NCBI GenBank assembly: GCA_963804055.1
Contig: CAWDOU010000001.1
Span: 451,156-483,155 of the forward strand
Direction of reading: 5' to 3'
Source of the DNA: an uncultured Acidimicrobiaceae bacterium
Lineage (GTDB): Bacteria; Actinomycetota; Acidimicrobiia; Acidimicrobiales; RAAP-2
DNA: 32,000 bases
Shown here: positions 11,311 through 29,437 of the stretch, in pieces
Layout: the number at the start of each line of letters is the position of its first letter
Position numbering within the stretch: the first letter of the stretch is position 1
The notes under the pieces: model-generated
Databases searched by the model: none
What the model was told of the DNA's origin: nothing
Seen by the model: only the letters and a program-made list of their open reading frames with translations
Position numbers and translations under genes: made by a program

Positions 11311-11432
11311 CCCGTCGTCACGCTTCCTTCGCGGCCCGTGGCCTCACCGGGTCGGCCGGAGGCGGTGCATAGGATTGCTCCGTGGCGTCGGCCGGCGAAC
11401 CTCCGACACCGGATCCCCTCTGGGTCGGTGAC

Positions 11433-12488
11433 ATGCAGATCCGTCTGCTGGCTCCGTCCGAGTCAGCCCGGCTCGGCGAAGCCGTTCGGGCCGTCTACGG
11501 CGAGACCTACCCCGTGCAGTGGACCTACGACCCGGACGAGGTGGCCCGCCGTATCGCCGCCGGTCTCCTGATCTCGGCCATCGCCGAGACGGCCGAGGGC
11601 GAGCTGCTGTGTCATTCGGGTCTCGTGCTCAACGCACCGGGTGACGCCATCGGCCACGCCGGCCAGGCTCTGACGCTGCCCGCGGCGCGGGGGCAGCACA
11701 TCTTCACCACGGTCAAGCGTTACCTCGTCGACTGGGCGGCGGCCCTGGCGCTCGTCGGCATGTACAGCGAGGCCACTGCCGCCCATCCCTACAGCCAGCG
11801 GGCCCTGTTGGATCTGGGCGGCCACGAGACGGGATTCTTGCTCGGCTTCATTCCTGCGACGGTCGACAACAACGCCGCGGAGGGGTCGAGCCGGGGCCGC
11901 ACGTCGGCCGCATTGTTCTTTCTCCGGTTGCGACCGGGCCATGAGCGGATGCTCTATGCGCCCACCCGTCACCGCGACATCGTGCTCCAGACGATTCAGA
12001 TCTGTGGGTCCCGGTCCACCCTGGCCGAGGCGCCGGCGAGCCCGGACCTTCCCCCCGTCTCCGAACTCTCCATCGAGAATGATCCCGGCGACAACGTCGC
12101 GACCCTGATGGTGCACCGGGCCGGCGAGGACCTGACCGCCCGTGTCGACGCGGAGCGCGCCCGGCTGTTCGGTGAGGGCGTCGACGCCCTGTATGTGGAT
12201 CTGCCGCTCGACCGGCCCGAGTCGGCGCACGTGAGCACTGCCCTGCAGGAGCTCAGCCTGTCCTACTCGGGGATCTTCCCCAACAACCGGGCCGCGGCGG
12301 ACGTCCTCCGGCTGCAGTGCCTGCGCGACGCCACCGCCTGGAGTCACGACGTGGCGGTGGCCTCCCCCCACGGTGCCGCACTGCTCGAGTATGTGATCGC
12401 GGACATGGAGGCGGTGGGCCAGAGGGTCGAGCGGGCCGCCAACACGTGTGTTCCCGGTGACGCCGTCCCGCTGGTCGCCGTGCGCTGA
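11433..12488 (+). CDS. GNAT-like acetyltransferase with an uncharacterised C-terminal half
   Basis: The N-terminal ~150 aa (MQIRLLAPSE...LTLPAARGQHIFTTVKRYLVDWA...YSQRALLDLGGHETG) has the layout of a GNAT acetyl-CoA-binding fold. I could not assign the C-terminal ~200 aa. The start could also be ATG 11382. Confidence 0.55.
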   Translation: MQIRLLAPSESARLGEAVRAVYGETYPVQWTYDPDEVARRIAAGLLISAIAETAEGELLCHSGLVLNAPGDAIGHAGQALTLPAARGQHIFTTVKRYLVDWAAALALVGMYSEATAAHPYSQRALLDLGGHETGFLLGFIPATVDNNAAEGSSRGRTSAALFFLRLRPGHERMLYAPTRHRDIVLQTIQICGSRSTLAEAPASPDLPPVSELSIENDPGDNVATLMVHRAGEDLTARVDAERARLFGEGVDALYVDLPLDRPESAHVSTALQELSLSYSGIFPNNRAAADVLRLQCLRDATAWSHDVAVASPHGAALLEYVIADMEAVGQRVERAANTCVPGDAVPLVAVR

Positions 12489-12503
12489 GGGCGCCAACCC
12501 GGA

Positions 12504-13118
12504 TCAGGCGATCGGGAAATCGAAATAGGTGTCCGGGTACGGCTCGTGTCCGAGGGTGTAGTGCCACCATTCACGGTCGTAGGACCTGAAGCCGCAGTCC
12601 TCCATGATGGAGCACAGAGAGCGGCGGTTCCTCGCCTCGAGTTGCGAGATTCCCCGTGCGCCATGATGCGAGATCGGATCCATCAGATCGTGGTCTCCAC
12701 CCATGGCAGCCAGATCTCCGCTGCCCAGGTCGTAGAGGGTCAGGTCGACCGTGCTGCCCCTGCTGTGCCCCGATCTGGTCGCCACGTAGCCGTCCTCGAA
12801 CATCGTGACCCTCTCCATGTTGGGATAGTGCCGCATCTTCGTCCGGCCGTCCTCCGGCTGTTCTGACCATCGCACGAAGCAATCCACGGCCCGCTGCGGC
12901 CGGTAGCCGTCCCAGAGGAGCAGACCGAAACCCCACGACGCAGCCTGGTCCCGTGCGTGCGCGAGCGCTGCGCACAATGCCCTCGTACCGACGATGCGAT
13001 TCGCCAGGTACCCGTCGACCGGCCGCCCGGTGAAGTTGTCCCACGTGGCGTACTTTGCATCCCAGCGAACTCCGGGCACCAGCTCGTCGACGTAGACGAA
13101 CTGCTCGAACATGGTCAT
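12504..13118 (-). CDS. vanX: D-alanyl-D-alanine dipeptidase VanX
   Basis: Trimmed to ATG 13118 (MTMFEQFVYVDELVPG...). VanX signatures are present: WDGYRP, SGHSRGSTVDLTL (Zn ligands) and REWWHYTL. Its start overlaps the ligase stop (ATGA at 13115-13118). Confidence 0.92.
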   Translation of the reverse strand: MTMFEQFVYVDELVPGVRWDAKYATWDNFTGRPVDGYLANRIVGTRALCAALAHARDQAASWGFGLLLWDGYRPQRAVDCFVRWSEQPEDGRTKMRHYPNMERVTMFEDGYVATRSGHSRGSTVDLTLYDLGSGDLAAMGGDHDLMDPISHHGARGISQLEARNRRSLCSIMEDCGFRSYDREWWHYTLGHEPYPDTYFDFPIA

Positions 13119-14149
13119 CTCGCGCTCAGCGCCAAGGCCACGACCCGGTCGACGACATCGGCGAGCGACCATCCCGCGGCCGCCATCATCCTCGGAAAGC
13201 GGCTGTACGACGTCAGGCCGGGCATCGTGTTGACCTCGTTCAGGACGACCGTTCCGTCCTCCTGCAGGAACAGGTCCACCCGCGACAGACCCCGGCACCC
13301 CAAGGCCTGGTAGAGGGTCCTCGCCGTCTCTTGGACACGTGCTCGTGATTCCGGTGGGATGTCGGCGGGCACAATGAAGGTGGCGTTCTCCGAGCCACTC
13401 TCCGGCCGCTGTTCCTGATGGATTCTGAAGAACCCATGGGACAGAGCGACGCGGTCCGGCTCGCCGACGATCAGGTCGGCGCCGTTGCCGATGACCGCGC
13501 AGCCGATCTCGCTCCCGATGAGGGCGTCCTCAATGAGGACCTTCGTGTCGTAGCGCCGTGCGGTGTCGATCGCACCCAGGAGTTCCTCCGGGCGGGAGAC
13601 CTTGCTGACGCCGAACGACGACCCCGACCGGGCCGGCTTTACGAACACGGGGTAGGTGAACTCGTCGGGATCGACGACAACGTGCGGTGTGATCGCTCGG
13701 AAACGCGGTGTTTCGATGCCGGCCTGGCGAGCGACGAGGTACGTGAGCGACTTGTCCATGCACAGCGCGGAGCTCTGAATGTCGCAGCCCACGTAGGGGA
13801 CGCCGGACAGGTCCAGCAAGCCCTGGATGGCCCCGTCCTCGCCCTGTTTCCCGTGCAGAACAGGGAACACCAGGTCCACGGGGACCTCTTCGTAGCCCTC
13901 CGGGGTGTGGACGAGGAGCCCGTGCACGCGTCGGTCCGGCGACAGCAGCGCGGGAAGGCAGGTGCCGGCTTCCCAATCCGCATCGGGGTCGTCACACAGT
14001 GTCCAGTTGCCCCGTGTCGTGATGCCGACGTAGAACGGTTCGTACGTAGCGGGGTCGAGGGCCCTCGCGACCTCTTGCGCTGACTTGAGCGAAACCGCAT
14101 GCTCTTCTGAAGATCCTCCGAAGAGGACCGCGATCCGCACCCTAGCCAT
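13115..14149 (-). CDS. vanA: D-alanine--D-lactate ligase (VanA/VanB-type)
   Basis: Begins MARVRIAVLFGGSSEEHAVSLKSA. Contains GFFRIHQEQRPESGSENATFIVPADI and LNEVNTMPGLTSYSRFPRMMAAAG. These closely parallel enterococcal VanA as I recall it, including the His-containing RIHQE segment. Flanked by vanH and vanX with overlapping stop/start codons. Confidence 0.92.
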   Translation of the reverse strand: MARVRIAVLFGGSSEEHAVSLKSAQEVARALDPATYEPFYVGITTRGNWTLCDDPDADWEAGTCLPALLSPDRRVHGLLVHTPEGYEEVPVDLVFPVLHGKQGEDGAIQGLLDLSGVPYVGCDIQSSALCMDKSLTYLVARQAGIETPRFRAITPHVVVDPDEFTYPVFVKPARSGSSFGVSKVSRPEELLGAIDTARRYDTKVLIEDALIGSEIGCAVIGNGADLIVGEPDRVALSHGFFRIHQEQRPESGSENATFIVPADIPPESRARVQETARTLYQALGCRGLSRVDLFLQEDGTVVLNEVNTMPGLTSYSRFPRMMAAAGWSLADVVDRVVALALSAR

Positions 14150-15197
14150 GAGGATCCGCTCCCAGGAAGCAGAGACAGTTGGTGAGAGTGGCCTCCATGA
14201 TGTCCCGGAGGGCGTGGTCCGTGTAGTAGGCGGTGTGTGGTGTGATCACGACGTTCGGCAGCTTCTGCAATCGCGCCAACAGCGGGTGCGAAGCGGGATC
14301 CCGGCTGTGATCGAAGTAGAAGATGCCGTCCTCGCCTTCGAGGACATCCAGGGCCGCTCCACCGAGGCGCCCGCTCTCCAGGGCGTCGAGAAGGGCCTCC
14401 GTGGCGACGAGTGATCCCCGTCCCGTGTTGATGACGAACGCCCCTGGCTTCATCTGCCCGATCCGTTGGCGGTCCAGGAGGTGGTGGGTCTCTCCGGTGA
14501 GAGGCGTGTGGAGCGTGACGACATCGCTGTGCGCCAGCAGGGCGGCGAGGGGCACGCAGCCGATGGAGGGCTCTGGACGCCGGTCATGGACGAGCACCCG
14601 ACCGCCGAAGCCCCGCAGGCGGTCGAGAACCGCAGATCCGATGCGCCCCGCCCCGATCACGCCGATCGTCATGTCGCGGAGCTCCCGCCCGAGGACCTCG
14701 CCCAATCGGTAGTCGTGCGCCTGTGAGCGGAGGACTGTCGATTGGGCGTTTCGCGCCACCATCAACAGCAACAGCAGCGTATAGTCGGCCACGCTGGCCG
14801 GCGAGTAGGCGACGTTCTCGACCGAAATCTGCAGGCACTCCGCTGCGCGCAGATCGATATGGTCATATCCCACGCTCCTGGTCGAGATGTACCTCACGCC
14901 GGCCTGGTGGAGAGCACGAAGGGTGGCGTGTGAGACCTGCGATTTGTGGCCGATGCTGATGCAGCGATTTCCGGCGCTCAGGCGAGCGGTTCCCTCCGAC
15001 GCCGGGGCGCTTGTGATGGTCGGGCTGACGCCATGTCGGGCCGCGATCTCCCGGAGCAAGGCCGTCTCGTTCGGCTCGCAGCCATAGAAGGTGATGCCGA
15101 TCCGAGCAGAGGTGTGGGTTTCATGGCGCGCGCCCGCAGAGAACGCCGGCCGGGGTGCGGGGTGAGCTGCCGAGCGCACCGGTACTCTGGGGTCCAC
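14142..15197 (-). CDS. vanH: D-lactate (2-hydroxyacid) dehydrogenase VanH
   Basis: Has IGITFYGCEPNE near the N-terminus, the NAD-binding segment GVIGAGRIGSAV, and the D-2-hydroxyacid dehydrogenase core. An 8-nt overlap with the vanA start lies at 14142-14149. The first ~33 aa are an Ala/Pro/Arg-rich extension, so the true start is uncertain. An in-frame GTG lies at 15179. Confidence 0.88.
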   Translation of the reverse strand: MDPRVPVRSAAHPAPRPAFSAGARHETHTSARIGITFYGCEPNETALLREIAARHGVSPTITSAPASEGTARLSAGNRCISIGHKSQVSHATLRALHQAGVRYISTRSVGYDHIDLRAAECLQISVENVAYSPASVADYTLLLLLMVARNAQSTVLRSQAHDYRLGEVLGRELRDMTIGVIGAGRIGSAVLDRLRGFGGRVLVHDRRPEPSIGCVPLAALLAHSDVVTLHTPLTGETHHLLDRQRIGQMKPGAFVINTGRGSLVATEALLDALESGRLGGAALDVLEGEDGIFYFDHSRDPASHPLLARLQKLPNVVITPHTAYYTDHALRDIMEATLTNCLCFLGADPHG

Positions 15198-15287
15198 CCC
15201 ATCGAGTCAATCCATTGCGATGTTGTCAGCGGGTATCGAGCTTTGGATACGCCGGCGATATGTCCCGGCACGTAACCTGGCCTGAAT
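15198..15287. promoter_or_regulatory. divergent vanH / vanR control region
   Basis: A 90-bp gap between the divergent vanH and vanR starts must hold both promoters. ATCGAG occurs at 15201 and 15235, and GCGAT(g/a)T(t)GTC-like words at 15217 and 15255. A TAACCT (TANNNT) -10-like hexamer at 15273-15278 sits 9 nt before the GTG start of vanR, and there is no SD. Confidence 0.45.
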
Positions 15288-15974
15288 GTGCGTGTTCTGA
15301 TCGTCGAGGACGAGCCCTACATGGCCGATGCCATTCGTGACGGTCTACGGCTGGAGGCGATCGCCGCCGATATCGCAGCGGACGGTCACGCTGCCCTGGA
15401 GCTGTTGCGCGTCAATTCCTACGACATCGCCGTCCTCGACCGCGACATCCCAGGGCCCTCTGGTGACCAGGTGGCGGGGCGCATCGTCGCCTCGGGCAGC
15501 GGCATCCCTATCCTCATGCTCACAGCCGCAGACCGCCTCGATGACAAGGCTTCCGGGTTCGAGCTCGGCGCCGACGACTACCTCACGAAGCCCTTCGAGC
15601 TCCGGGAGCTCGTGCTTCGCCTCCGGGCACTCGATCGCCGGCGAGCGCACCACAGGCCGCCGGTGCGGGAGATCGCAGGGTTGCGGCTCGATCCGTTCCG
15701 ACGCGAGGTGTATCGGGACGGGCGCTATGTCGTGCTCACCCGCAAGCAGTTCGCAGTGCTCGAGGTACTCGTGGCGGCAGATGGCGGCGTCGTCAGTGCC
15801 GAAGAGCTCTTGGAACGGGCTTGGGACGAGAATGCGGACCCTTTCACGAATGCGGTGCGCATCACGGTCTCATCGTTGCGCAAGCGTCTCGGTGGGCCCC
15901 CGATCATCGCCACGGTGGCCGGTGTCGGCTATCGGATCGAGGCTGCGGCGGAGTCTGAGGAAGATCATGGATAG
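15288..15974 (+). CDS. vanR: OmpR-family response regulator VanR
   Basis: The receiver domain shows MRVLIVEDE, the phospho-acceptor context DIAVLDRDIPG, and DDYLTKPF. A winged-helix C-terminus is present (LTRKQFAVLEVL...GVGYRI). It is divergent from vanHAX and overlaps vanS by 8 nt. Confidence 0.85.
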   Translation: MRVLIVEDEPYMADAIRDGLRLEAIAADIAADGHAALELLRVNSYDIAVLDRDIPGPSGDQVAGRIVASGSGIPILMLTAADRLDDKASGFELGADDYLTKPFELRELVLRLRALDRRRAHHRPPVREIAGLRLDPFRREVYRDGRYVVLTRKQFAVLEVLVAADGGVVSAEELLERAWDENADPFTNAVRITVSSLRKRLGGPPIIATVAGVGYRIEAAAESEEDHG

Positions 15975-17073
15975 AGCCTCCGGCTTGAGTGTTCGCCTCA
16001 AACTGACGCTCAGCTACGCCGGTTTCGTCATGGTCGCAGGTGCCCTTCTCCTTGGTGCCGTCTGGGTGTTCCTGTTGCGCTACGTGCCCAGGGGCGAGAC
16101 CGTTATCGTCCACAACTCGCGCATCCTGGTGTCCCCGGGTCGCGGCGAGCTTCTGCGGGATTTCGGGCCGGCTGCAGCCGTCGTCCTGGTGTGTCTGTTG
16201 GTTTTCGGGCTCCTCGGGGGATGGCTTCTTGCCGGCCGGATGCTCGCCCCTCTGGCCCGGATCACCGAGGCCACACGCATGGCTGCAGAAGGATCACTGT
16301 CGCATCGGATACGCCTCCCCGGCCGGAAAGACGAGTTCCGCGAGTTGGCAGATGCCTTCGACACCATGCTGGCGCAGCTGGAGGCACATGTGGCGGAACA
16401 GCAGAGGTTCGCCTCCAACGCCTCCCATGAACTTCGCACGCCGCTGGCGATCACACAGACACTTCTTGAGGTCGCGCGAAACGATCCCTGTCGAGGAGAC
16501 GACCAGCTCGTCGACCGTCTTCTCCTGGTGAACGCCCGCGCCATCAATCTCACCGAGGCGTTGCTGGTGCTCAGCCGCGTCGACCAACGGTCGTTCACGC
16601 CGGAGGACGTCGACATGTCGCTTGTGGTGGAGGAAGCCACCGAGGTGCTCCTTCCTCTCGCCGAGAAGCACGGCGTGACGATGGATGTCTCCGGAGGCCT
16701 GGCTCAGACGACGGGTTCCGCTGCACTCTTGTTGCAACTGACGACGAACCTCGTGCACAACGCAATCGTGCACAATCTCGATCACGACGGTGCCGTGTGG
16801 GTCACCATCGGTGTCCAGGGCCAAGACGTGGTGCTGACGGTCGAGAACACCGGAGCGAGGCTCACCGCGCAGGCCGTCTCCACACTGGTCGAGCCGTTCC
16901 AGCGCGGATCCACGCGCCTGCACACCGACCACGGTGGCATAGGTCTCGGGCTGGCGCTTGTCGACAGCATCACGAGCGCACACGACGGGACGCTCACGCT
17001 GGCCCCCCGTCCCAGCGGAGGGCTCTGTGCGGTGGTTCGACTGCCCGCGGTGCCACGGGAGGTGGTTCGGTAG
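15967..17073 (+). CDS. vanS: sensor histidine kinase VanS
   Basis: ATG 15967 lies inside track ORF 15328..17073. There are two TM helices with a short extracytoplasmic loop, a HAMP-like linker, the H-box ASHELRTPLA, the N-box LVHNAIVHN and the G-box DHGGIGLGLALV. Confidence 0.85.
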   Translation: MDRASGLSVRLKLTLSYAGFVMVAGALLLGAVWVFLLRYVPRGETVIVHNSRILVSPGRGELLRDFGPAAAVVLVCLLVFGLLGGWLLAGRMLAPLARITEATRMAAEGSLSHRIRLPGRKDEFRELADAFDTMLAQLEAHVAEQQRFASNASHELRTPLAITQTLLEVARNDPCRGDDQLVDRLLLVNARAINLTEALLVLSRVDQRSFTPEDVDMSLVVEEATEVLLPLAEKHGVTMDVSGGLAQTTGSAALLLQLTTNLVHNAIVHNLDHDGAVWVTIGVQGQDVVLTVENTGARLTAQAVSTLVEPFQRGSTRLHTDHGGIGLGLALVDSITSAHDGTLTLAPRPSGGLCAVVRLPAVPREVVR

Positions 17074-17156
17074 ATATCCGGTCCTGGGCCGTCGCGCCTG
17101 TTCCGCAGGCTCGCAGACCCCCATACGTGCTTCGTCGTCACGAACTGATTCCAAAG

Positions 17157-17681
17157 GTGTACGTGAAAACCTTCCCGAAAGTGGTCCTCGCGGTGTACAC
17201 GGCCGTCCTGCTCTGGCTGATTCTGTTCAAGTTCTCAGTGCATATCGATGCTGTGCTGCACTACGACAGGAGGAGTCTGAACCTCGTGCCGTTCTCGGAC
17301 GCTTCGGGGAGCGTGGGCGAGATGCTCGACAATGTCCTCGTCTTCATCCCGTTCGGTGTGTTATTGGGCGTCACCTGCAAGCGTCTCAATGTGTGGCGCA
17401 AGCTTCTCGTTGTCCTTGCCTTCAGCCTGACCGTCGAGGTGCTGCAGTACGTGTTCGCCATCGGAGCCTCGGACATCACCGACGTCATCGCGAACACGTT
17501 CGGTGGCCTTCTCGGGCTGATGGCCTATGACCTGGGTCGCAGGCACATTCGTAAAGAGAGCCTCGACAGGTTCATCGTGACCGCGGGAAGTGCGTTCCTC
17601 GCGGTGTTTCTCCTGCTTCTTGCGGTAGTGGAGATCCGTCATGGAGTGCGATATCACTTGCCCCACACGAGGGGCAACTGA
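17157..17681 (+). CDS. VanZ-like family membrane protein
   Basis: The C-terminal part of track ORF 16797..17681 has the layout VLAVYTAVLLWLILF...NLVPF...NVLVFIPFGVLLG...EVLQY...SDITDVIANTFGGLLG, typical of VanZ (PF04892). The start is ambiguous: GTG 17127, 17157 or 17163. GC is visibly lower here than in the van enzymes. Confidence 0.75.
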   Translation: MYVKTFPKVVLAVYTAVLLWLILFKFSVHIDAVLHYDRRSLNLVPFSDASGSVGEMLDNVLVFIPFGVLLGVTCKRLNVWRKLLVVLAFSLTVEVLQYVFAIGASDITDVIANTFGGLLGLMAYDLGRRHIRKESLDRFIVTAGSAFLAVFLLLLAVVEIRHGVRYHLPHTRGN

Positions 17682-17705
17682 ATGAGGGTCGGTGAGCCGC
17701 CGAGA

Positions 17706-18116
17706 TCAGGGCAGCGTGGAGCCCGCGTCCATCGGGACTCCGACGACCGAGGCGATCCGGCTGAGGTCGGCGTCGTGGGCCAGGAGCACCGCCCCGTGGC
17801 GGAGCGCCACCGAGGCGATCATGCAGTCCACCAGCCCACGTGGTGTCACGCCGGCCCGGCGACATCTCCGATAGATCAGGCTCGCTGCGTCGAAATCGGC
17901 GACGGCCTCGAAGGTGAGCAGGTGACAGCGGGCGAGCAGTCGCTGCAGATCGGCCGCCCGGTTGTCACTGCGCGCGCCGGCGACGACTTCCATGACGACG
18001 GGTTCGGTGACCGCCAAGGCGCCATCGTCGGCGATGAGTTCGGCCATGCGTTGGTCGACGCGGCTGCCGGAACCGCGGTCGTACTCCACCCAGGCCGAGG
18101 TGTCGGCGAGGATCAC
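17706..18116 (-). CDS. vapC: PIN-domain ribonuclease toxin VapC
   Basis: Begins MILADTSAWVEY. The PIN acidic residues appear in ILADTS, VMEVV, LVDCMIA and LLAHDAD. The GTG start overlaps the vapB stop (GTGA at 18113-18116). Confidence 0.88.
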   Translation of the reverse strand: MILADTSAWVEYDRGSGSRVDQRMAELIADDGALAVTEPVVMEVVAGARSDNRAADLQRLLARCHLLTFEAVADFDAASLIYRRCRRAGVTPRGLVDCMIASVALRHGAVLLAHDADLSRIASVVGVPMDAGSTLP

Positions 18117-18325
18117 CGCCCGTCGGCGGGGCCCGAGTCCTGGGGAACCTCCCCGATGGCGTGCGCCCCCCGCATCGCCAGCGCCTCGTCACGGGTCATG
18201 GGCTGCCCGGCGAGGTGCCGGAGTGCCAGGTCGACCGCTTCCGTCTTCGTGTGCACGCCGTAGCGGTCCATCACCGCCCGGAGAACCGTCTCCTCTATCT
18301 CGATGTTGGTGCGTGCCCGGCTCAT
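18113..18325 (-). CDS. vapB: VapB-family antitoxin
   Basis: Trimmed to ATG 18325 (MSRARTNIEIEETVLRAVMDRYGVHTKTEAVDLALRHL), the classic VapB_antitoxin N-terminus. 70 aa, with a 4-nt overlap with vapC. Confidence 0.8.
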   Translation of the reverse strand: MSRARTNIEIEETVLRAVMDRYGVHTKTEAVDLALRHLAGQPMTRDEALAMRGAHAIGEVPQDSGPADGR

Positions 18326-18362
18326 ACACGTATCGTACACATGACGTGTAGGGAGCGTGTAG
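18325..18362 (-). promoter_or_regulatory. vapBC operator/promoter (four TACACG/CGTGTA half-sites, leaderless -10)
   Basis: TACACG lies at 18325, TACAC(a) at 18336, and CGTGTA at 18345 and 18356. This makes two pairs spaced 11 bp apart in inverted orientation. On the minus strand TACGAT (TANNNT) lies at 18332-18337, 6 nt upstream of the vapB ATG, and there is no SD. Confidence 0.5.
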
Positions 18363-18669
18363 CAAAGCACGCCGTTAATGGTGGATGGAGCCGCAGGGAA
18401 GAGGGTGATTGGTGTCCAGTCCCACAATCCGGATCGACAATCGTCTCGAAACTAACGCCATACCAAGATGAGCATCCCTCCTCGAATTGTCCCTTAGCTG
18501 GACGTCCAGGTGCAGGCCTCACATGAGGCGATCCAAGCTGGCGCATTCGTCACCCGTGAAGGTCTTCAAAGTACCTGACTCCGCAACAGTTGTCGCTGCC
18601 ATTTCCCAGCGGCATACTTCCCAACCGAGCGTTGGGCTGTGAGCCCGATTCTGGCGAAGGCGGTGCACG

Positions 18670-21600
18670 ATGATCAGTCGGCAGAGGGGATCGGGGAGGC
18701 GCGCGCCTTCCACTCAAGCGCCCCCTTTTGCGCGCCTGCCCCAGGGTCGCCTGGGGCGCGGGACATTCCTGGCCTGGGTTCGCCTGGCCCTGTGCACCGC
18801 GCTGGCCGCCGCCGCATCGATCTTGGCCCTTGGTGTTCCTACGGCCAGCGCTGGTGCCGCCGAGCACGCCACGAGCAGCACCTTGGGCTATCGCCTCGTC
18901 GCCTCTGACGGGGGCATCTTCGGCTACGACGCTGCTTTCTTCGGATCTGCTGGTGGCAGGCATCTCAACGAGCCCATCGTCGGCATGGCGCCCACTCCTT
19001 CGGGCGACGGGTACTGGGAAGTTGCCTCCGACGGTGGCATCTTCAATTACGGCGACGCCAAGTTCTTGGGGTCGACGGGAGCCATCCATCTGAACAAGCC
19101 CATCGTTGGCATGGCGGCCACCCCCGATGGCGGGGGCTACTGGCTGGTGGCATCCGACGGCGGCATCTTCACCTACGGCGACGCCAGGTTCTTCGGTTCC
19201 ACCGGTGCCATCCATCTGAACAAGCCCATCGTCGGCATGGCGGCCACCCCTGACGGCGGTGGCTACTGGCTGGTGGCCAGCGACGGTGGGATCTTCACCT
19301 ATGGCGACGCCGGCTACTACGGCTCGACGGGCAATGTCCACCTCAACAAGCCGATCGTGGCCATGACGGCGAGTCCTGACGGCGGGGGCTACTGGCTGGT
19401 GGCCTCCGACGGGGGCATCTTCAACTACGGAGATGCCACCTTCTTGGGATCGACCGGGGCCGTCCACCTCAACAAGCCGATCGTCGCCATGACCCCGACC
19501 CCTGACGGCGGGGGCTATTGGCTCGTGGCCTCCGACGGGGGCATCTTCAACTACGGCGACGCCACCTTCTTGGGATCGACCGGCGGGACAGCGCTCAACG
19601 CCCCCATCGTCGGACTCACCTTCTACCGCTTGATCCTGCATCAGCCGGTCACGTCGCCCACGACCACGTCACCGACCACGACCATTGCACCGACGTCGCC
19701 CACGACGACGACGACTGCCCCGACCACGACGACGACAACCATCCCGACCTCGACCACCACATCAACATCGACCACCAGCACCACGACGACGATTCCTCCC
19801 ACCACGACCACCACGACCGCCTCACCGACGTCGACTACGACGACCACTGCACCCACCACTACGACCACCACGACCACTTCACCGACGTCGACCACCAGCA
19901 CGACGTCGACCACCAGCACGACGGTGGCGACCCCCATTCCGACGATCACCTCGATCAGCCCGACCGCTGGGCTGACCTCGGGTGGGACGTCGGTTGTCAT
20001 CACCGGCACACACCTCAACGGGGCGACCACGGTCAAGTTCGGCACCGCCTCAGCCAGATTCACCGATGACAGCACCACCTCTGTCACGGCCACCGCCCCA
20101 GGAGGGTCAGCCGGCACCGTCGACATCACGGTCACGACACCGGGGGGCACTTCGGCCACCTCGTCGGCCGATCAGTTCACCTACGTGGCCGTTCCCGCTG
20201 TCTCCTCCATCAGCCCGACCGCAGGAAGCTCCTCCGGGGGCACGAGTGTCACCATCACCGGGACCAACCTCTCGGGGGCCACCTCGGTCGAGTTCGGATC
20301 CAACCCGGCCACAGTTACCGGCGACAGCACTACCTCGATCATTGCGACCGCACCCGCGGGAACGGGCACCGTCGACGTGACCGTCACCACTCCCGGAGGC
20401 ACCTCGGCCATTTCGGCGGCCGACGAGTTCAGCTACGTCTTTGACCCATGCAGCCCGCTAACGGCAAACACGGAGGTTCCCTCGGGCATCTATGTCGTCA
20501 ATTGCACAATGGACGTGCCCCCAGGCGTCACTTTGACGCTTGACCCTGGTGTGATCCTGAAGTTCGGATCAGCAGATGGCATCACCGTCGACGGCACGCT
20601 CGACGCCGTGGGCACCAGCACCGAGCCCATCACCTTCACCTCTCTCAACGACAACTCGGTTGGAGGTGACACTGGCGATGGAACCCCAGGCGTCACAGAC
20701 TGGAGCGGGATCTCCGTTCAGAACTCAGGGTCAATCGATCTCGAGCACGCCGAGATCGCCTACGGAGCGGACGGCATCGAAGGCGGCGGCAACGGATCGT
20801 TCGTCGTCTCCAACGACGTCTTCTTGACCACGGGCACGCCCGTGTCGCTCGACACCTCTGCCTCGGTCACGATCCAGGACGACACCTTTAGCAACAGTGG
20901 CGAGACCCCAGTTTCCGTCGATGCCCCGACGCCGGTGGTCGAGAACAACACCGTGAACCAGAACTCGAGTTCTGGTTCGTCAGAGGTCGCTTTCAGCGTC
21001 GACGGCACCGCGCTCGACCTCAGCCAGTTGCAGCCCAACACAGTGATCGGTACTGGCTTCGTCGGGTTCCAGATCTCAGGGGTTCTGGCCGCAAGTGGGA
21101 CCCTTGCGGCAGGTCCACAACCTTGGATGGTTGGCGCCAATGAAACGGAGACCTCCCTCGTCGTGCCCCAGGGGATTACCTTGACCGTCGCACCGGGTGT
21201 CGTGGTCAAGGGGACGCAATTCGGGTGCGGACCCTATTGCTCGGTTGTGAGCCTCAAGATCGACGGCACGCTCGACGCCGTGGGCACCAGCACCGAGCCC
21301 ATCACCTTCACCTCTCTCAACGACAACTCGGTTGGAGGTGACACTGGCGATGGAACCCCAGGCGTCACAGACTGGAGCGGGATCTCCGTTCAGAACTCAG
21401 GGTCAATCGATCTCGAGCACGCCGAGATCGCCTACGGAGCGGACGGCATCGAAGGCGGCGGCAACGGATCGTTCGTCGTCTCCAACGACGTCTTCTTGAC
21501 CACGGGCACGCCCGTGTCGCTCGACACCTCTGCCTCGGTCACGATCCAGGACGACACCTTTAGCAACAGTGGCGAGACCCCAGTTTCCGTCGATGCCCCG

Positions 21601-22848
21601 ACGCCGGTGGTCGAGAACAACACCGTGAACCAGAACTCGAGTTCTGGTTCGTCAGAGGTCGCTTTCAGCGTCGACGGCACCGCGCTCGACCTCAGCCAGT
21701 TGCAGCCCAACACAGTGATCGGTACTGGCTTCGTCGGGTTCCAGATCTCAGGGGTTCTGGCCGCAAGTGGGACCCTTGCGGCAGGTCCACAACCTTGGAT
21801 GGTTGGCGCCAATGAAACGGAGACCTCCCTCGTCGTGCCCCAGGGGATTACCTTGACCGTCGCACCGGGTGTCGTGGTCAAGGGGACGCAATTCGGGTGC
21901 GGACCCTATTGCTCGGTTGTGAGCCTCAAGATCGACGGCACGCTCGACGCCGTGGGCACCAGCACCGAGCCCATCACCTTCACCTCTCTCAACGACAACT
22001 CGGTTGGAGGTGACACTGGCGATGGAACCCCAGGCGTCACAGACTGGAGCGGGATCTCCGTTCAGAACTCAGGGTCAATCGATCTCGAGCACGCCGAGAT
22101 CGCCTACGGAGCGGACGGCATCGAAGGCGGCGGCAACGGATCGTTCGTCGTTGAACAGACAACCATCACAGACGTCGGTACTGCTATTGCCTTCTCCGGG
22201 AACTCTGCACTCATGAGCGGCATCACGATCGATGACGCCCAATCGGGTTTGTCGGTGACAAGCGGAGCAGCAACACTTCGAGCGATTCTTAACAACGTGC
22301 AGGTTGGCGTCGAGGCTTGTGACTGGGGCACATCCACGTCCTGCTCCGTTGATGCGTCCTACTCCTATTGGGGAAATCCAAGCGGTCCTGGAGGAGGCAC
22401 AAACGGCGAACCATCGGTATGCGGCGACGTCTGGACGAGCCCGTACTACACGTCTGACTCAGAGAGCTCAACCGATACGGGCACGGTCTTTGAGGCAAAC
22501 TGCGACGGTTCGCCAACTCCCGATCAACAGCTAGCTACGGCAGAGCAGAATGAGAGTAGCGCGGAAAGCGTGCTGCAATTGGAGTGTTCGTCTATCGGTC
22601 AGCCCTATTGTCAAGAATTGCAGAGCGACGACCAGTGCCTCTCGGGTCTGATCAGCCTCGGTGAAGCGGCTTCTGAGTACTCCTTCACGGGTCCCGAGGA
22701 CGTGGTCGGGAACGGTGCCGAATTCATCGAGGAGAATGCTTCGGAGGACGTCGGAAATGTTGCAAAAGACGCTGCCTTCCTGGACACAATTTCGTCCTTT
22801 GTTTCAACGGTTCTGCAGGTAGCCGACGCATTGAATTCCTGTTTCTAG
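18670..22848 (+). CDS. large secreted multi-repeat protein (propeller-like repeats, Thr/Pro linker, 2x IPT/TIG, repeated beta-helix-like modules, Cys-rich acidic tail)
   Basis: A single 1392-aa ORF. The N-terminus has a signal-peptide-like segment (FLAWVRLALCTALAAAASILALGVPTASA). Two segments of the type ITSISPTAGxxSGGTxVxITGTxLxGATxVxFG...VTTPGGTS are IPT/TIG-like. The modules GTSTEPITFTSLNDNSVGGDTGDGTPGVTDWSGI with short strand-turn periodicity, plus a YWGNPSGP cap motif, resemble right-handed beta-helix proteins. The exact start codon is uncertain. Confidence 0.85.
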   Translation: MISRQRGSGRRAPSTQAPPFARLPQGRLGRGTFLAWVRLALCTALAAAASILALGVPTASAGAAEHATSSTLGYRLVASDGGIFGYDAAFFGSAGGRHLNEPIVGMAPTPSGDGYWEVASDGGIFNYGDAKFLGSTGAIHLNKPIVGMAATPDGGGYWLVASDGGIFTYGDARFFGSTGAIHLNKPIVGMAATPDGGGYWLVASDGGIFTYGDAGYYGSTGNVHLNKPIVAMTASPDGGGYWLVASDGGIFNYGDATFLGSTGAVHLNKPIVAMTPTPDGGGYWLVASDGGIFNYGDATFLGSTGGTALNAPIVGLTFYRLILHQPVTSPTTTSPTTTIAPTSPTTTTTAPTTTTTTIPTSTTTSTSTTSTTTTIPPTTTTTTASPTSTTTTTAPTTTTTTTTSPTSTTSTTSTTSTTVATPIPTITSISPTAGLTSGGTSVVITGTHLNGATTVKFGTASARFTDDSTTSVTATAPGGSAGTVDITVTTPGGTSATSSADQFTYVAVPAVSSISPTAGSSSGGTSVTITGTNLSGATSVEFGSNPATVTGDSTTSIIATAPAGTGTVDVTVTTPGGTSAISAADEFSYVFDPCSPLTANTEVPSGIYVVNCTMDVPPGVTLTLDPGVILKFGSADGITVDGTLDAVGTSTEPITFTSLNDNSVGGDTGDGTPGVTDWSGISVQNSGSIDLEHAEIAYGADGIEGGGNGSFVVSNDVFLTTGTPVSLDTSASVTIQDDTFSNSGETPVSVDAPTPVVENNTVNQNSSSGSSEVAFSVDGTALDLSQLQPNTVIGTGFVGFQISGVLAASGTLAAGPQPWMVGANETETSLVVPQGITLTVAPGVVVKGTQFGCGPYCSVVSLKIDGTLDAVGTSTEPITFTSLNDNSVGGDTGDGTPGVTDWSGISVQNSGSIDLEHAEIAYGADGIEGGGNGSFVVSNDVFLTTGTPVSLDTSASVTIQDDTFSNSGETPVSVDAPTPVVENNTVNQNSSSGSSEVAFSVDGTALDLSQLQPNTVIGTGFVGFQISGVLAASGTLAAGPQPWMVGANETETSLVVPQGITLTVAPGVVVKGTQFGCGPYCSVVSLKIDGTLDAVGTSTEPITFTSLNDNSVGGDTGDGTPGVTDWSGISVQNSGSIDLEHAEIAYGADGIEGGGNGSFVVEQTTITDVGTAIAFSGNSALMSGITIDDAQSGLSVTSGAATLRAILNNVQVGVEACDWGTSTSCSVDASYSYWGNPSGPGGGTNGEPSVCGDVWTSPYYTSDSESSTDTGTVFEANCDGSPTPDQQLATAEQNESSAESVLQLECSSIGQPYCQELQSDDQCLSGLISLGEAASEYSFTGPEDVVGNGAEFIEENASEDVGNVAKDAAFLDTISSFVSTVLQVADALNSCF
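18886..19623 (+). repeat. six tandem 126-bp (42-aa) coding repeats
   Basis: Units begin at about 18886, 19012, 19138, 19264, 19390 and 19516. The consensus is YWLVASDGGIFxYGDAxFxGSTGxxHLNKPIVGMxxTPDGGG. The DNA copies differ at many synonymous positions. Confidence 0.85.
19645..19941 (+). repeat. low-complexity ACC/ACG-rich tract encoding a ~100-aa Thr/Pro/Ser linker
   Basis: The translation is TSPTTTSPTTTIAPTSPTTTTTAPTTTTTTIPTSTTTSTSTTSTTTTIPPTTTTTTASPTSTTTTTAPTTTTTTTTSPTSTTSTTSTTSTT. Confidence 0.85.
20589..22151 (+). repeat. 100% identical 672-bp in-frame tandem repeat, 2.3 copies
   Basis: Unit starts are at 20589, 21261 and 21933. By eye, copies 1 and 2 are identical over all 672 bp. 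Copy 3 is identical for 219 bp, to 22151. The antisense track ORFs 20760..21209 and 21432..21881 are letter-identical. Confidence 0.95.
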
Positions 22849-23166
22849 GTTGCGTTCGCCGCGATACGTGCAGGCCAAACGACCACTGTCTGCCGAGGGC
22901 GGCTATTGCTGCCGAACGATTGAATGCGACGGATAGCATTCGCGCCGGCTGCAAGGGAGCGCGTGGAGAGACCGCAACCTGGCGCCTTTCGATAACCGTA
23001 GAAGATGCTGAGACCATGGTGAGATTGCCATGTGATTTCTGGAGCTACGGCTAGTAATCGGCAGCCCTGCAACATATGCCTGTCCAAGCGTCTGGTAGTT
23101 CGCAGATTCACAACCTCCCTTCACGGTGGCGACGCGTACCTGGCTGGGCCTAGGCAGCTTTCGGAG

Positions 23167-24447
23167 TCATTGCACCCCGAACCACCCCAGCACCGTCTGC
23201 AGGACGAGGAAGGCGGCGAACGCGCCGACCGTCACCACGGTGATCGTCCCGAGCCAGCGGGCGGCCGTGCCGTTGGCGGCGCCCCCCAGGAGGGAGCGCC
23301 GGTTGGCCAGCACCAGAATGAAGGTGAGCGTGATCGGCGTGATGACGCCCTCCAGGACCTGCGTGTTCACAATGAGGGTCAGGAGGTTGCCCGGCACCAG
23401 GACCACCGCTGCCCCCGCCACGATCTGGAAGGTGAAGACCCCGAGGAAGAGCGGCGCCTTGCGGAAGCTGCTCGATACCGAGCGCTCCGCCCCGATCACC
23501 TCGGCCACCGCATAGGAGGTCGAGAGCGGCACGACGGCCGCGGCGAGGGCCGAGGCGCCGAGCAGCCCGATGCCGAAGAGCGCCTCGGCCGCCTGGCCCG
23601 CCACCGGCTCCAGGGCGTGCGCCGCCTGTGAGGCCGAGGTGAGCGCGCCGGACCCCCCGATGGCTGCGGCGGTGGCGATGATGATCGTCATGGAGACGAT
23701 GTCCGAAATGACGGCCCCGCCGATGGCGTCGACCCGCTGGTAGCGGTACTGGGAGACCTGCACGCCCTTGTCGACCACGGCACCCGCCTCGTAGAGCTGG
23801 ATGTACGGCGTGATCGTCGTCCCGATGAGCGCCACCCCGAGGAGCAGGAAGCCCGAGGTGAACACGAAGTGCGGCCACAGCGTGTGGGTGACGACCTGGT
23901 GCCAGTCGGGATGCCCGAGGACGGCGGCGATGGGGTAGGTGATGAAGACGAGCGTCATGAGGAGGAAGATGCGCTCGGCGTAGCGGTACGACCCGAACAG
24001 GACCAGCGCCCAGATGACGACGGCGGCGATGGGGACGCAGAGGTAGCGCGACACCCCGAAGAGGCTGAAGGCCGTGGCGATGCCGCCGAACTCCGTCACC
24101 ATGAGCCCGAGGTTGGCCACGGCGAAGGCCGCAATGGCGAACGCGGTCAGCCGGAGCGAGAACTCCTCGCGGATGAGCGCCGCCAGCCCTTTGCCGGTGT
24201 ACACCGAGAGGCGGGCCACCATCTCCTGAATGACGACGTAGAAGACCGTGACGACCACCATGAAGAACAGGGTCCGGTAGCCGAACTGGGCGCCGGCGGA
24301 CGCGTACGTCACGACACCGCCGGCGTCGTTGCCGGCACTGGCCGCAATGAGACCCGGGCCGGCGAAGGTCAGGTACAGCAGGAAGCGATTGCGGTTGCTC
24401 GACAGGCGCGTCGCGTCGCCCGCCGGAGCCCGCGTGCGAACGGGCAT
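23167..24447 (-). CDS. Nramp (SLC11)-related transporter with non-canonical metal-site motifs
   Basis: 426 aa with about 11 hydrophobic helices. An Nramp-like TM1 region (AGPGLIAASAGNDAGGVVTY) and TM6 region (ALIGTTITPYIQLYEAG) are present. GAGGAG lies 7 nt upstream of the ATG. Confidence 0.8.
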   Translation of the reverse strand: MPVRTRAPAGDATRLSSNRNRFLLYLTFAGPGLIAASAGNDAGGVVTYASAGAQFGYRTLFFMVVVTVFYVVIQEMVARLSVYTGKGLAALIREEFSLRLTAFAIAAFAVANLGLMVTEFGGIATAFSLFGVSRYLCVPIAAVVIWALVLFGSYRYAERIFLLMTLVFITYPIAAVLGHPDWHQVVTHTLWPHFVFTSGFLLLGVALIGTTITPYIQLYEAGAVVDKGVQVSQYRYQRVDAIGGAVISDIVSMTIIIATAAAIGGSGALTSASQAAHALEPVAGQAAEALFGIGLLGASALAAAVVPLSTSYAVAEVIGAERSVSSSFRKAPLFLGVFTFQIVAGAAVVLVPGNLLTLIVNTQVLEGVITPITLTFILVLANRRSLLGGAANGTAARWLGTITVVTVGAFAAFLVLQTVLGWFGVQ

Positions 24448-27997: not shown

Positions 27998-28531
27998 ATG
28001 GTTGAGCGTCCCATACGCATTTTGGGCGACCCTGTCCTTCGGTCCCCCTGTAAGGAGGTCGAGTCTTTCGACCATGGCCTGGCGAGTCTCGTGGCCGACC
28101 TGGAGGAGACGGTGGCAATGCCTGGTCGCGCCGGACTGGCAGCCAACCAGATCGGAGTCGTTCGCCGCGTCTTCTCGTGGCACATCGACGGTGAGGTGGG
28201 TCATGTCGTCAACCCGGTGATCGAAGCCGAAGAAGGTGAGCAGGACGACGACGGCGAAGAAGGGTGCCTTTCAATACCCGGCCTGTTTTACCCGTGTCCG
28301 CGGGCGGAGTTCGTGAGAGTGCGAGGGTTCGACCGGCACGGCGAGGCAGTGGTGGTCGAAGGTCACGGCCTGATGGCGCGCTGCATCCAGCACGAGGTGG
28401 ACCACTTGAACGGCCGCCTTTTCATCGACCGCCTGACGGGGCCCATCCGCAAGCAGGCAATGCGCGACCTGCGGCTGTTGTCTGCCCCGGGCGATGGTCA
28501 GCCGGCTCCGGCGACGCCAATCTGGCACTGA
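27998..28531 (+). CDS. def: peptide deformylase
   Basis: All three Def motifs are present: GLAANQIG, EGCLSIPG and HEVDHLNG. Confidence 0.92.
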   Translation: MVERPIRILGDPVLRSPCKEVESFDHGLASLVADLEETVAMPGRAGLAANQIGVVRRVFSWHIDGEVGHVVNPVIEAEEGEQDDDGEEGCLSIPGLFYPCPRAEFVRVRGFDRHGEAVVVEGHGLMARCIQHEVDHLNGRLFIDRLTGPIRKQAMRDLRLLSAPGDGQPAPATPIWH

Positions 28532-28826
28532 GTGTCACGGTCCCGGCGCACTGTGACCTCATCTGCCGGCGGGTCGGACAAACGTGGCCCGTGGCCGAGG
28601 GCGGCGTCAACGCCATCGAGGCGATGTGTGACATTGCCGGAGAAGTGGTCGGTCCGGCATAGCCACGGCGGCATCGTTCGATCGCATGGCGCCTGGAGGT
28701 ACCGTTCAGCGGCAACCCGGCCAACCGGGGCTCATCGCACGTGGCTGCAGTTCCGTGACTCGCCAGCCATGCGAAGAGCCAACATGACTCATGCGTAAGC
28801 CCTTCGAGCAGAGGAGAGGACCCAGA

Positions 28827-29261
28827 ATGCCGGACCCGCGCTACGCCGCCTACCGTGCCGCAGATCCGTACTTCAATTTGGTTCGCGGCGCGCTGGACGA
28901 CTGCGTTGACGGCGACCATTTCTTCGAAACTGTTTCCGACGGCGTCATCTATGAGGTGCTCTACGACTTTCCGGGATGGCCCCGCGTTGTTCAGGGTCGC
29001 GCTGCGCTGATGGCTCAGTTCAAGGGCTACGGCGAGAGCATCGATCTTCAATCCGCCGACAATCTGATCGTTCGCAAAGGTGACGGCGGTCGTGTGGTCG
29101 TTCTCGAATATGAAGTCCACGGGACGATTCGCGCGACGGGCGTGCAGTACGACAATCGATTCTGTTCCGTTGTCGAGATAGAGGACCGAAAGATCGCACA
29201 CTGGAGGGACTACATGGATTCGCTGGCAGCCTGGAATGCATTGACAGCCCAGGCCCCATAG
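28827..29261 (+). CDS. NTF2/SnoaL-like (PhzA/B- or KSI-like) small protein
   Basis: ATG 28827 is preferred because AGGAGAGGA lies upstream; the track start is 28791. The ~144-aa size and the pattern VLEYEVHGT...YDNRFCSVVEIEDRKIAHWRDYMDSLA are typical of the NTF2-like fold. Confidence 0.6.
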   Translation: MPDPRYAAYRAADPYFNLVRGALDDCVDGDHFFETVSDGVIYEVLYDFPGWPRVVQGRAALMAQFKGYGESIDLQSADNLIVRKGDGGRVVVLEYEVHGTIRATGVQYDNRFCSVVEIEDRKIAHWRDYMDSLAAWNALTAQAP

Positions 29262-29437
29262 GGAAGGGACGTGACCGGGAACCGGATCAGGGTCATCACC
29301 CACCACTCACTACGAAGCAGTTCACTTCCCTGTCCCCGGGAGTACAGCACCTACCCACTGCCGGCGACGCTGGAGGCAGGCTGCTTCTGACCCGATAGCG
29401 TGCGGAACGTGGAGGTTGGCTCTCGGCGCGGTGCGGT

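Follow-up and report, generated by a model that had tools for sequence, protein, structure and literature searches.

What holds a large secreted protein at the surface of an uncultured actinobacterium, and what does the protein present there? This question is raised by a 1392-amino acid (aa) open reading frame (ORF) at positions 18670-22848 on the + strand of a 32,000-nucleotide (nt) stretch of DNA, henceforth the window, from an uncultured Acidimicrobiales bacterium (GenBank assembly GCA_963804055.1, contig CAWDOU010000001.1, positions 451,156 to 483,155). The Acidimicrobiia and Thermoleophilia are abundant in soil and water, and to our knowledge almost nothing is known of their cell surfaces. 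An initial annotation, made from the letters of the DNA alone, had read the product as a signal-peptide-like N-terminus, six 42-aa repeats, a Thr/Pro linker, two Ig-like domains, three beta-helix modules and a Cys-rich acidic tail, with no visible anchor, and this domain order proved correct. We favor, at about an even chance, a reading in which the protein is a secreted surface stalk (fibril) of variable length, comparable to the Periscope Proteins, which are rod-like and defined by repeats of >50 aa with >=80% identity, the number of which varies among close strains (Whelan et al. 2021, PMC8201768). Three details make it unusual: the shaft is a beta-helix of exact units that vary in copy number, the propeller is abundant but unannotated and probably binds the wall, and the helical tip with eight cysteines is undescribed.

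The gene itself is real and intact, and ordinary in kind, being that of a repeat-rich surface protein. Because an in-frame stop codon lies at 18640, the ATG at 18670 is the sole plausible start, and a GC content at third codon positions (GC3) of 0.77 together with the domain matches given below mark the ORF as a genuine gene and not a chance product of high-GC DNA. The frame is open across 4.2 kb both in the window and in a second assembly of the locus (L067, see below). The mature product contains 14 cysteines and 128 acidic versus 18 basic residues; the even number of cysteines is consistent with oxidative folding outside the cell. No full-length homologue was recovered among 5.8 billion proteins, which bears out the earlier view that no characterized family covers the full length, and a search for the same domain order in relatives found the full architecture confined to this gene. 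A look-up of the exact 1392-aa product returned no record. The full-length search was swamped by TIG-rich and propeller-bearing proteins, and the N- and C-terminal halves have separate relatives.

The length-variable part of the protein is its beta-helix region. It opens with a diverged first lead-in (aa 596-640; 20455-20587 on the + strand, as are all parts of the gene given below) that contains Cys612, with Cys594 just ahead of it, and that aligns with the lead-ins of homologues. This is followed by an exact tandem array at 20588-22151, in which a beta-helix unit of 672 bp (224 aa) is present in 2.33 copies: unit 1 at 20588-21259, unit 2 at 21260-21931 and a partial unit 3 at 21932-22151. 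The stretches 20588-21479 and 21260-22151 are identical base for base over 892 nt, and since 672 bp are 224 codons the array stays in frame. The 224-aa periodicity that had been noticed at the outset is thus real, whereas the three modules are in fact 2.33 copies with 100% DNA identity placed after the diverged 45-aa lead-in. The last, unique beta-helix turns (aa 1162-1215; 22153-22314) are conserved in homologues. Searches with hidden Markov models (HMMs) recovered PF13229 (Beta_helix; 38.4-39.7 bits against a cutoff of 25.9) and PF05048 (NosD; 38.9 against 23.6), placing the region among the beta-helix proteins, and the generic family PF28492 (Beta_helix_4) is annotated on homologues. The PF05048 match reflects the fold alone; none of the 29 neighboring window ORFs scanned gave a nos-related Pfam match, and the locus has no nosZ, nosF or nosY context. 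An AlphaFold2 (AF2) model of aa 820-1392 (predicted local distance difference test score, pLDDT, 88.9; predicted template modeling score, pTM, 0.86) has a beta solenoid running continuously through the unit junction, its strands reaching model residue 396, i.e. aa 1215. Foldseek searches with this model returned nothing at E<=0.001 (all PDB matches had E >0.1 and BFVD matches >0.008, with template modeling scores <=0.32), and a PDB sequence search with the beta-helix and tail found nothing significant. Conservation within the unit is restricted to a single loop motif, GTLDAVGT..PIxFTS.NDNSVGG.TG.G.P..GDW.GI, and the remainder is variable with indels. Part of this loop, N-D-N-S-V-G-G-D-T-G-D-G (20650-20700 and the corresponding positions of each unit; aa 660-675), is similar to Ca2+-binding loops of the DxDxDG type; the candidate Ca2+-binding loop of the unit reads NDNSVGGDTGDG and its family consensus DDSVGGDTNGDG.

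Other assemblies of the locus were reached via the neighboring VapC protein, namely L067 (ENA ERZ25039540 contig_16422; 12.1 kb) and the short-read metagenome-assembled genome (MAG) GCA_049282715.1 (L068). L067 aligns to the window at 99.3-99.9% identity, most of it at 99.27% over 9.7 kb, and inside the stalk gene the two differ, array copy number aside, by one single-nucleotide polymorphism (22647). Its array displays a 2236-nt exact self-match at period 672, which amounts to 4.33 copies and a product of 1840 aa; L067 thus has exactly two units more than the window (4.33 versus 2.33). The contig of L068 ends inside the propeller repeats; one protein of the locus is labeled "Acidimicrobiales bacterium" by NCBI.

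Exact duplication of this kind is not peculiar to the locus. A search with aa 596-1392 recovered 78 relatives, the best being 35-46% identical over 98% of the query, and at least 20 of the 78 contain exact internal repeats of 122-563 identical residues with periods of 171-257 aa. Likewise, a scan of GTDB species genomes yielded 66 loci, mostly in MAGs of Solirubrobacterales, Acidimicrobiales and Saccharimonadales and many from Microflora Danica; many of these carry exact tandem tracts of 600-1700 nt (up to 1717 nt) with periods of 588-771 bp, one of them on a MAG record (OY970210.1) titled "chromosome: 1". Within single clusters at 90% identity, members with shared N- and C-termini differ by whole units: the proteins P0139 (883 aa) and P0495 (1120 aa) are one 237-aa unit apart, and P0490, P0123 and P0492 have 1.11, 2.11 and 3.11 copies, respectively. 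P0492 is the closest full-length relative of the beta-helix/tail half and shares the 224-aa period. Its units are only ~45% identical to those of the window while units within each gene are identical, a case of concerted evolution. Moreover, the ends of the homogenized tracts cluster at the conserved loop motif, fitting the pattern expected from unequal homologous recombination. Judged by these sequences, exact and copy-variable units are a family-wide trait in the homologues from soil Actinomycetota.

None of the 78 beta-helix/tail relatives has the propeller. The N-termini of the four examined (P0124, P0121/P0487, P0492 and P0497) are signal-peptide-like, and in the three followed further (P0124, P0121/P0487 and P0492) Ig-like repeats come next. 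It would therefore seem that in the window gene a 5' half with propeller and TIG domains, resident in the lineage, has been joined to a 3' half with beta-helix and tail. Along the gene the GC content declines steadily, with 0.71 for the signal peptide, 0.65 for the propeller, 0.67 for the TIG domains, 0.62 for the beta-helix and 0.56 for the tail; this suggests that the 3' half was acquired separately and fused on, being compatible with a chimera while no proof of one. Several observations on these relatives deserve mention. Loci of the family in Saccharimonadales MAGs of the candidate phyla radiation (CPR) are L025, L028-L030, L037, L045 and L060; members of this group are thought to live as epibionts on Actinomycetota classes, and the family may have spread by horizontal transfer or may have a surface role common to both groups. 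For P0124 (L069, 5731-9564), the true ORF includes a signal peptide and begins 270 nt before the start that was called, and in P0121 (L072, 6767-10868) a frameshift in the long-read contig splits off the N-terminal part with signal peptide and Ig-like repeats. The neighborhoods of four homologues (L069-L072) contain genes of mobile or defense type, for a resolvase, type I restriction-modification, T5orf172, NERD and SRA/McrA-like proteins and helix-turn-helix regulators, and share no conserved partner. No relatives turned up in scans of viral contigs and of metagenomes from the Joint Genome Institute (JGI); a prophage origin is unsupported, and these scans added no further alleles. In JGI and source records, beta-helix homologues are labeled "invasion protein IalB" or "urease beta subunit" and many propeller proteins "ribosomal protein L24E", all of which are evidently spurious automatic names.

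The N-terminal half offers a candidate for the attachment of the stalk. The six 42-aa repeats noticed earlier are borne out as six blades (aa 71-322; 18880-19635): Tandem Repeats Finder reports period 126 at 18901-19583 with 5.4 copies and 81% matches, and the AF2 model of aa 63-330 is a six-bladed beta-propeller (pLDDT 92.3; pTM 0.88). Foldseek recovered 1238 PDB matches to this model at E<=0.001, the top-listed being mostly WD40-type, YVTN and RCC1-like, none of them specific. No propeller family in Pfam matched the repeats even at E<=1, no named family (WD40, YVTN, NHL, RCC1, Kelch or tachylectin) was recovered by its sequence profile, and a PDB sequence search found nothing significant, leaving the fold that of a generic propeller. 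A profile search in which 8000 proteins were scored at E<=1e-10 placed the module in at least 7986 other proteins (7986/8000 scored, a lower bound); it has no Pfam model, and every match with a taxon name belongs to the Acidimicrobiales. Many of these homologues are almost nothing but this module, with no precomputed Pfam domain. Among the best 120 matches, the annotated partners are 11 CHAP, 5 NlpC/P60, 4 Amidase_3, 4 YkuD L,D-transpeptidase (3 with PG_binding_1), 2 M23 and 1 polysaccharide deacetylase domains, and further include CAP, GH43 and Ig-like domains. In 101 of these 120 the propeller lies at an end of the protein (C-terminal in 64, N-terminal in 37); in the TIG proteins from the full-length search it is mostly C-terminal, and P0003, P0011 and P0104 have an N-terminal propeller followed by TIG domains with no beta-helix. 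Since peptidoglycan enzymes dominate the fusion partners, the propeller is likely to be a wall-targeting module and is probably the best candidate for a non-covalent wall anchor by this association. The absence of LPXTG and transmembrane segments claimed at the outset was upheld by motif search and hydropathy, but the conclusion that there is no anchor at all is probably wrong, given that thousands of Acidimicrobiales proteins join the six-repeat propeller to peptidoglycan hydrolases and transpeptidases. In some propeller homologues the blades are near-identical to each other, and five of the 42-aa repeats of P0105 are identical save for I/V changes at one position; in some lineages the propeller has thus been rebuilt recently by amplification of single blades, a process described for other propellers too (PMC9218822).

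On either side of the propeller lie a signal peptide and a Thr-rich linker. The predicted Sec-type signal peptide (aa 1-62; 18670-18855) combines a long n-region rich in Arg with a hydrophobic core (aa 33-57), which is the sole hydrophobic peak of the entire protein (Kyte-Doolittle hydropathy over 19 residues, KD19, 2.07), and an ASA|G motif at aa 60-62/63 where cleavage would take place. A Tat signal was rejected, as the RR has no hydrophobic motif after it, and so was a lipobox, as "LALC" has Leu at position -1. C-terminal to the propeller is a low-complexity linker rich in Thr, Ser and Pro (aa 326-420; 19645-19929; T 64%, S 14%, P 11%; Thr share over aa 331-420 likewise 64%). Thr/Pro linkers in actinobacteria are commonly O-glycosylated, and by analogy this one is probably extended and O-glycosylated. 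It leads into two IPT/TIG Ig-like domains (aa 424-505 and 509-592; 19939-20445), recovered by PF01833 in two stretches (E=3.3e-25; 88.3 bits against a cutoff of 20.9) and overlapping a match to NCBIfam NF058597. The signal-peptide-like leader, the ~100-aa Thr/Pro linker and the pair of IPT/TIG-like domains of the initial annotation are all sustained by these results. A surface location is possible, with a signal peptide present and propeller partners that point to the wall, but with no LPXTG or transmembrane anchor.

The C-terminal tail is indeed Cys-rich and acidic (8 Cys; 35 acidic versus 2 basic residues), but rather than a loose tail it is a conserved folded domain confined to C-termini. 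It comprises a Cys-rich cap (aa 1216-1283; 22315-22518) with the motif C-x-W-x(n)-C-x-V-D-A-x-Y-x-x-W-G, which holds four of the eight invariant cysteines seen as invariant columns in the alignments A1 and A3, followed by a predicted four-helix bundle (aa 1284-1391; 22519-22848), which holds the other four, including the penultimate Cys1391, and is followed by the stop codon. In the AF2 model the helices span model residues 465-489, 492-515, 523-537 and 545-572. All eight cysteines are invariant in the tail alignment A3, and Cys1251 is nearly so in A1. A tail profile searched against 1.84 billion cluster representatives matched 314 clusters; the domain is at the extreme C-terminus in 150/150 among the matches listed, 128 of the 133 matches long enough to score have exactly eight Cys in their last 190 residues, and 133 of 140 have a Cys within the last five. 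It is preceded by beta-helix units and by spacers of the Ig-like kind (TIG, fn3, Big_13, CARDB), and only very rarely by enzymes. It has no Pfam match, and a PDB sequence search with the profile gave nothing significant; tail and shaft together have no relative among viral structures or viral contigs, their PDB fold matches being generic beta-helices only. The features of a sortase anchor are missing: the C-terminal KD19 maximum is 1.23, with no transmembrane segment, the protein ends ...ALNSCF, and no true LPXTG occurs anywhere in it, a loosened pattern giving three Ala-rich strings (LAAAA, LAASG) far from the C-terminus. A cutinase domain (PF01083) is annotated on the relatives P0132, P0156 and P0168, the second of which also has a PE-PPE domain. 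In P0132, whose sequence we read, the cutinase follows an identical-repeat beta-helix array and replaces the Cys tail, which suggests that the C-terminus is the site of the working head; together, the three cutinase-annotated relatives suggest that the stalk can present different heads.

Based on these observations we propose the following scheme. The protein would be exported by Sec, and its N-terminal propeller would bind the wall of the producing cell non-covalently, via peptidoglycan or a wall polymer. The ~95-aa Thr-rich linker, probably glycosylated, would cross the wall, such that the two TIG domains and the rigid right-handed beta-helix rod could project a disulfide-locked C-terminal domain made up of the Cys cap and four-helix bundle. 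RecA-type unequal crossover between the exact 672-bp units would add or remove whole 224-aa units in frame, altering the projection of the tip faster than the sequence is altered by point mutation. With ~23 strands per unit in the AF2 model, corresponding to 7-9 coils, we estimate ~3.5-4.5 nm per unit, by which the window and L067 alleles would differ by ~7-9 nm. Possible roles include adhesion, spacing, or shielding against phages or epibionts. Thus, the secreted surface protein or adhesin envisaged at first holds, while an S-layer or glycan-degrading role is unsupported, there being no catalytic-family or SLH match and only generic beta-helices among the structural matches.

Several points weigh against this proposal. 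Association with fusion partners cannot name the ligand of the propeller, and the copy-number variation at the locus comes from two assemblies, in which a long-read assembler could have miscounted units. The rod geometry and the disulfide pairing are AF2 predictions, and the GC drop from 0.71 to 0.56 hints at a recent chimera, the parts of which may not yet cooperate. Finally, the other beta-helix/tail members inspected all have the tail but neither the propeller nor a known anchor, implying that the family may be released or may be anchored by the tail, and the Periscope Proteins SasG, Rib and Sgo_0707 have a C-terminal anchor and an N-terminal head (PMC8201768), the opposite of the polarity proposed here. 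These last points converge on a reversed orientation, which we hold to be unlikely though the strongest of the rivals, with the eight-Cys helical tail fixing the protein to the cell or self-associating into a layer, and the propeller serving as a distal lectin-like head for other walls or glycans. Propellers are common lectins, and both the strict placement of the tail at the extreme C-terminus in all matches listed and the Cys within its last five residues would suit an anchor. However, the tail has no transmembrane segment or sorting motif and is strongly acidic, and P0132 has a cutinase in its place, as would be expected if the C-terminus were the functional end. Furthermore, L,D-transpeptidases, enzymes that act on the wall of the cell producing them, are among the partners of the propeller, and it is the propeller, not the tail, that the linker of wall-spanning type adjoins.

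A secreted polysaccharide-active enzyme (lyase, hydrolase or epimerase), in which the beta-helix units would be catalytic while the propeller and TIG domains would bind carbohydrate or act as spacers, appears a little less plausible again. PL1/3/6/9, GH28 and the AlgE/AlgG epimerases all have the right-handed beta-helix fold, both PF13229 and NosD score above their cutoffs, the top, non-significant Foldseek matches are PL3, GH87, tailspikes and AlgE4, and AlgE epimerases also carry duplicated beta-helix modules. Yet no catalytic-family HMM matched at E<=1, so that no lyase, GH28 or epimerase membership was recovered, and the PDB sequence search and weak Foldseek scores were equally negative; a specific kinship to lyases or tailspikes was ruled out, as Foldseek against PDB and BFVD gave only generic beta-helices, none of them at E<=0.001. 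Conservation of one loop motif amid variable, indel-bearing sequence, exact duplication with variable copy number, which is typical of stalks and not of active sites, and the Ig-like partners of the tail family likewise argue against catalysis. Much more improbable is a polymorphic toxin or contact-dependent effector of the WapA/CdiA kind, with a wall-binding N-terminus, a repeat shaft and a C-terminal toxin. The overall layout does resemble Bacillus subtilis WapA, homologues lie in variable islands near toxin-antitoxin, restriction-modification and resolvase genes, and a helical bundle could insert into a membrane; but the tail is conserved and not polymorphic, with the same eight-Cys pattern across 314 clusters, diverges at about the rate of the shaft and has no toxin match in Pfam, and instead of an immunity-like ORF a 318-bp spacer and a convergent Nramp gene lie downstream. 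Most improbable of all, we believe, is that the exact repeats and copy-number difference are an assembly artefact or that the gene is a pseudogene in decay. Exact repeats in tandem pose difficulties for assembly, the contig of L068, a short-read assembly from the same species, is broken within the gene, and frameshifts split some homologues in long-read MAGs. Against this, two independent assemblies agree on an intact frame of 4.2 kb or more, the length of the unit is divisible by 3, the pattern recurs with differing periods in dozens of independent loci, including OY970210.1, and the arrays of 1.5-2.9 kb are well below long-read length.

Around the gene, the lower-GC spacers and toxin-antitoxin neighbor described earlier were found as such: upstream, 344 bp separate it from the divergent vapB (18326-18669; GC 0.567; counted from the 70-aa vapB start), and downstream, 318 bp (22849-23166; GC 0.588) precede the convergent Nramp gene, both below the window GC of 0.672. 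No sigma-70 consensus promoter or Rfam match was found in the upstream spacer, and promoter, terminator and Rfam scans of the flanks gave nothing beyond chance, with one weak terminator-like hairpin at 23015-23032 in the downstream spacer. The vapBC pair (17706-18427, - strand; PF01850 PIN and PF09957 VapB), a divergent neighbor that we regard as context outside the system, is arranged identically in L067 and L068. Further upstream is a complete vancomycin-resistance-type cluster (12504-17681), with a VanX-like Peptidase_M15 (12504-13079, -), a ligase of the D-Ala-D-Ala ligase family (13115-14149, -; NCBI gives the name D-alanine--(R)-lactate ligase to a member of its 90% cluster), a VanH-like 2-hydroxyacid dehydrogenase (14142-15197, -), a response regulator (15288-15974, +), a HAMP/HisKA kinase (about 15968-17073, +) and VanZ (about 17163-17681, +). 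Window positions 12433-23176 have 71 mismatches to L067 that are strongly clumped, with 29 in 12561-13175 (vanX) and 17 in 16878-17040 (the 3' end of the kinase gene), and merely 4 in 17041-23176; from their distribution, the clumps look like recombination tracts in the van genes, with a near-identical background around the stalk gene. Elsewhere in the window are an ORF for a zeta-toxin/AAA_33-like kinase (1859-2440, -), two Pfam-less ORFs with coding-like GC3 (9194-10078, - and 11382-12488, +) and a third (28422-29306, -) that failed the GC3 filter.

More broadly, we tentatively entertain, as possible but rather doubtful, a joint reading of both halves as undescribed modules of one surface system in uncultured soil Actinomycetota, by which the 42-aa-blade propeller would be the general non-covalent wall-targeting domain of the Acidimicrobiales, carried by thousands of autolysins, transpeptidases and adhesins as a counterpart of LysM, SLH and CWB, and the beta-helix/eight-Cys-tail family would be a new class of length-variable fibrils, with a solenoid shaft resized through recombination of whole units, common to Solirubrobacterales, Acidimicrobiales and their likely epibionts, the Saccharimonadales, where it may function in cell-cell contact or in evasion of phages or epibionts. 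Should the propeller bind the wall, it would provide a functional label for thousands of currently unannotated proteins and, as a fluorescent fusion, a handle to label uncultured cells. The array also indicates that one continuous fold evidently tolerates the gain and loss of whole units in the form of perfect 672-bp repeats. A practical warning follows for the beta-helix/tail family: the lengths of its genes cannot be relied on in short-read MAGs, and the wrong start is often chosen by gene callers.

Comparison with known systems places these features in context. An archaeal S-layer protein with a YVTN beta-propeller and PKD domains (PDB: 1L0Q) likewise combines a propeller with Ig-like domains and ranks 32 in the Foldseek results, though the similarity is that of propellers in general (template modeling score about 0.5) and lattice formation has no support here. 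In B. subtilis WapA, a signal peptide, wall-binding repeats, a long repeat shaft and a C-terminal domain follow each other in the same order as the parts of the window protein, the shaft of which is, however, a beta-helix and not RHS/YD, and the C-terminal domain of which is conserved and disulfide-rich instead of a polymorphic toxin with an immunity gene. With the right-handed, pectate-lyase-like beta-helix proteins (PF13229, PF05048, PF28492) it shares HMM scores above the cutoffs and an agreeing predicted fold, but it matches no catalytic subfamily or solved structure beyond the generic fold, has no nos context and is built of exactly duplicated units. LysM, SH3b, GW, CWB/choline-binding and SLH are the non-covalent wall-targeting modules of surface proteins and autolysins in Gram-positive bacteria; like them, the propeller is a repeated, end-placed module fused to CHAP, NlpC/P60, amidase, M23 and YkuD domains and to adhesin-like Ig arrays, although as a candidate binder it has the distinct six-bladed fold and no sequence relation to any of them. 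The closest parallel is with the Periscope Proteins, which include SasG, Rib, Sgo_0707 and CdrA (PMC8201768). These too are exported and contain long tandem folded repeats of very high DNA identity (here 224-aa units identical over 892 nt), the number of which differs between close strains (here 2.33 versus 4.33 in two alleles), form an elongated rod (here predicted by the AF2 solenoid) and have intragenic recombination as the proposed driver. The differences lie in the sortase signal, since LPXTG is lacking here, in the undescribed tip domain, in the source, which is an uncultured soil Acidimicrobiales bacterium and not a host-associated pathogen, and in the unit itself, a stretch of continuous beta-helix solenoid in place of a bead-like Ig, G5-E or SHIRT domain. 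With this array, the Periscope principle would reach beyond the Ig-like beads of pathogens and take in a continuous solenoid of environmental bacteria.

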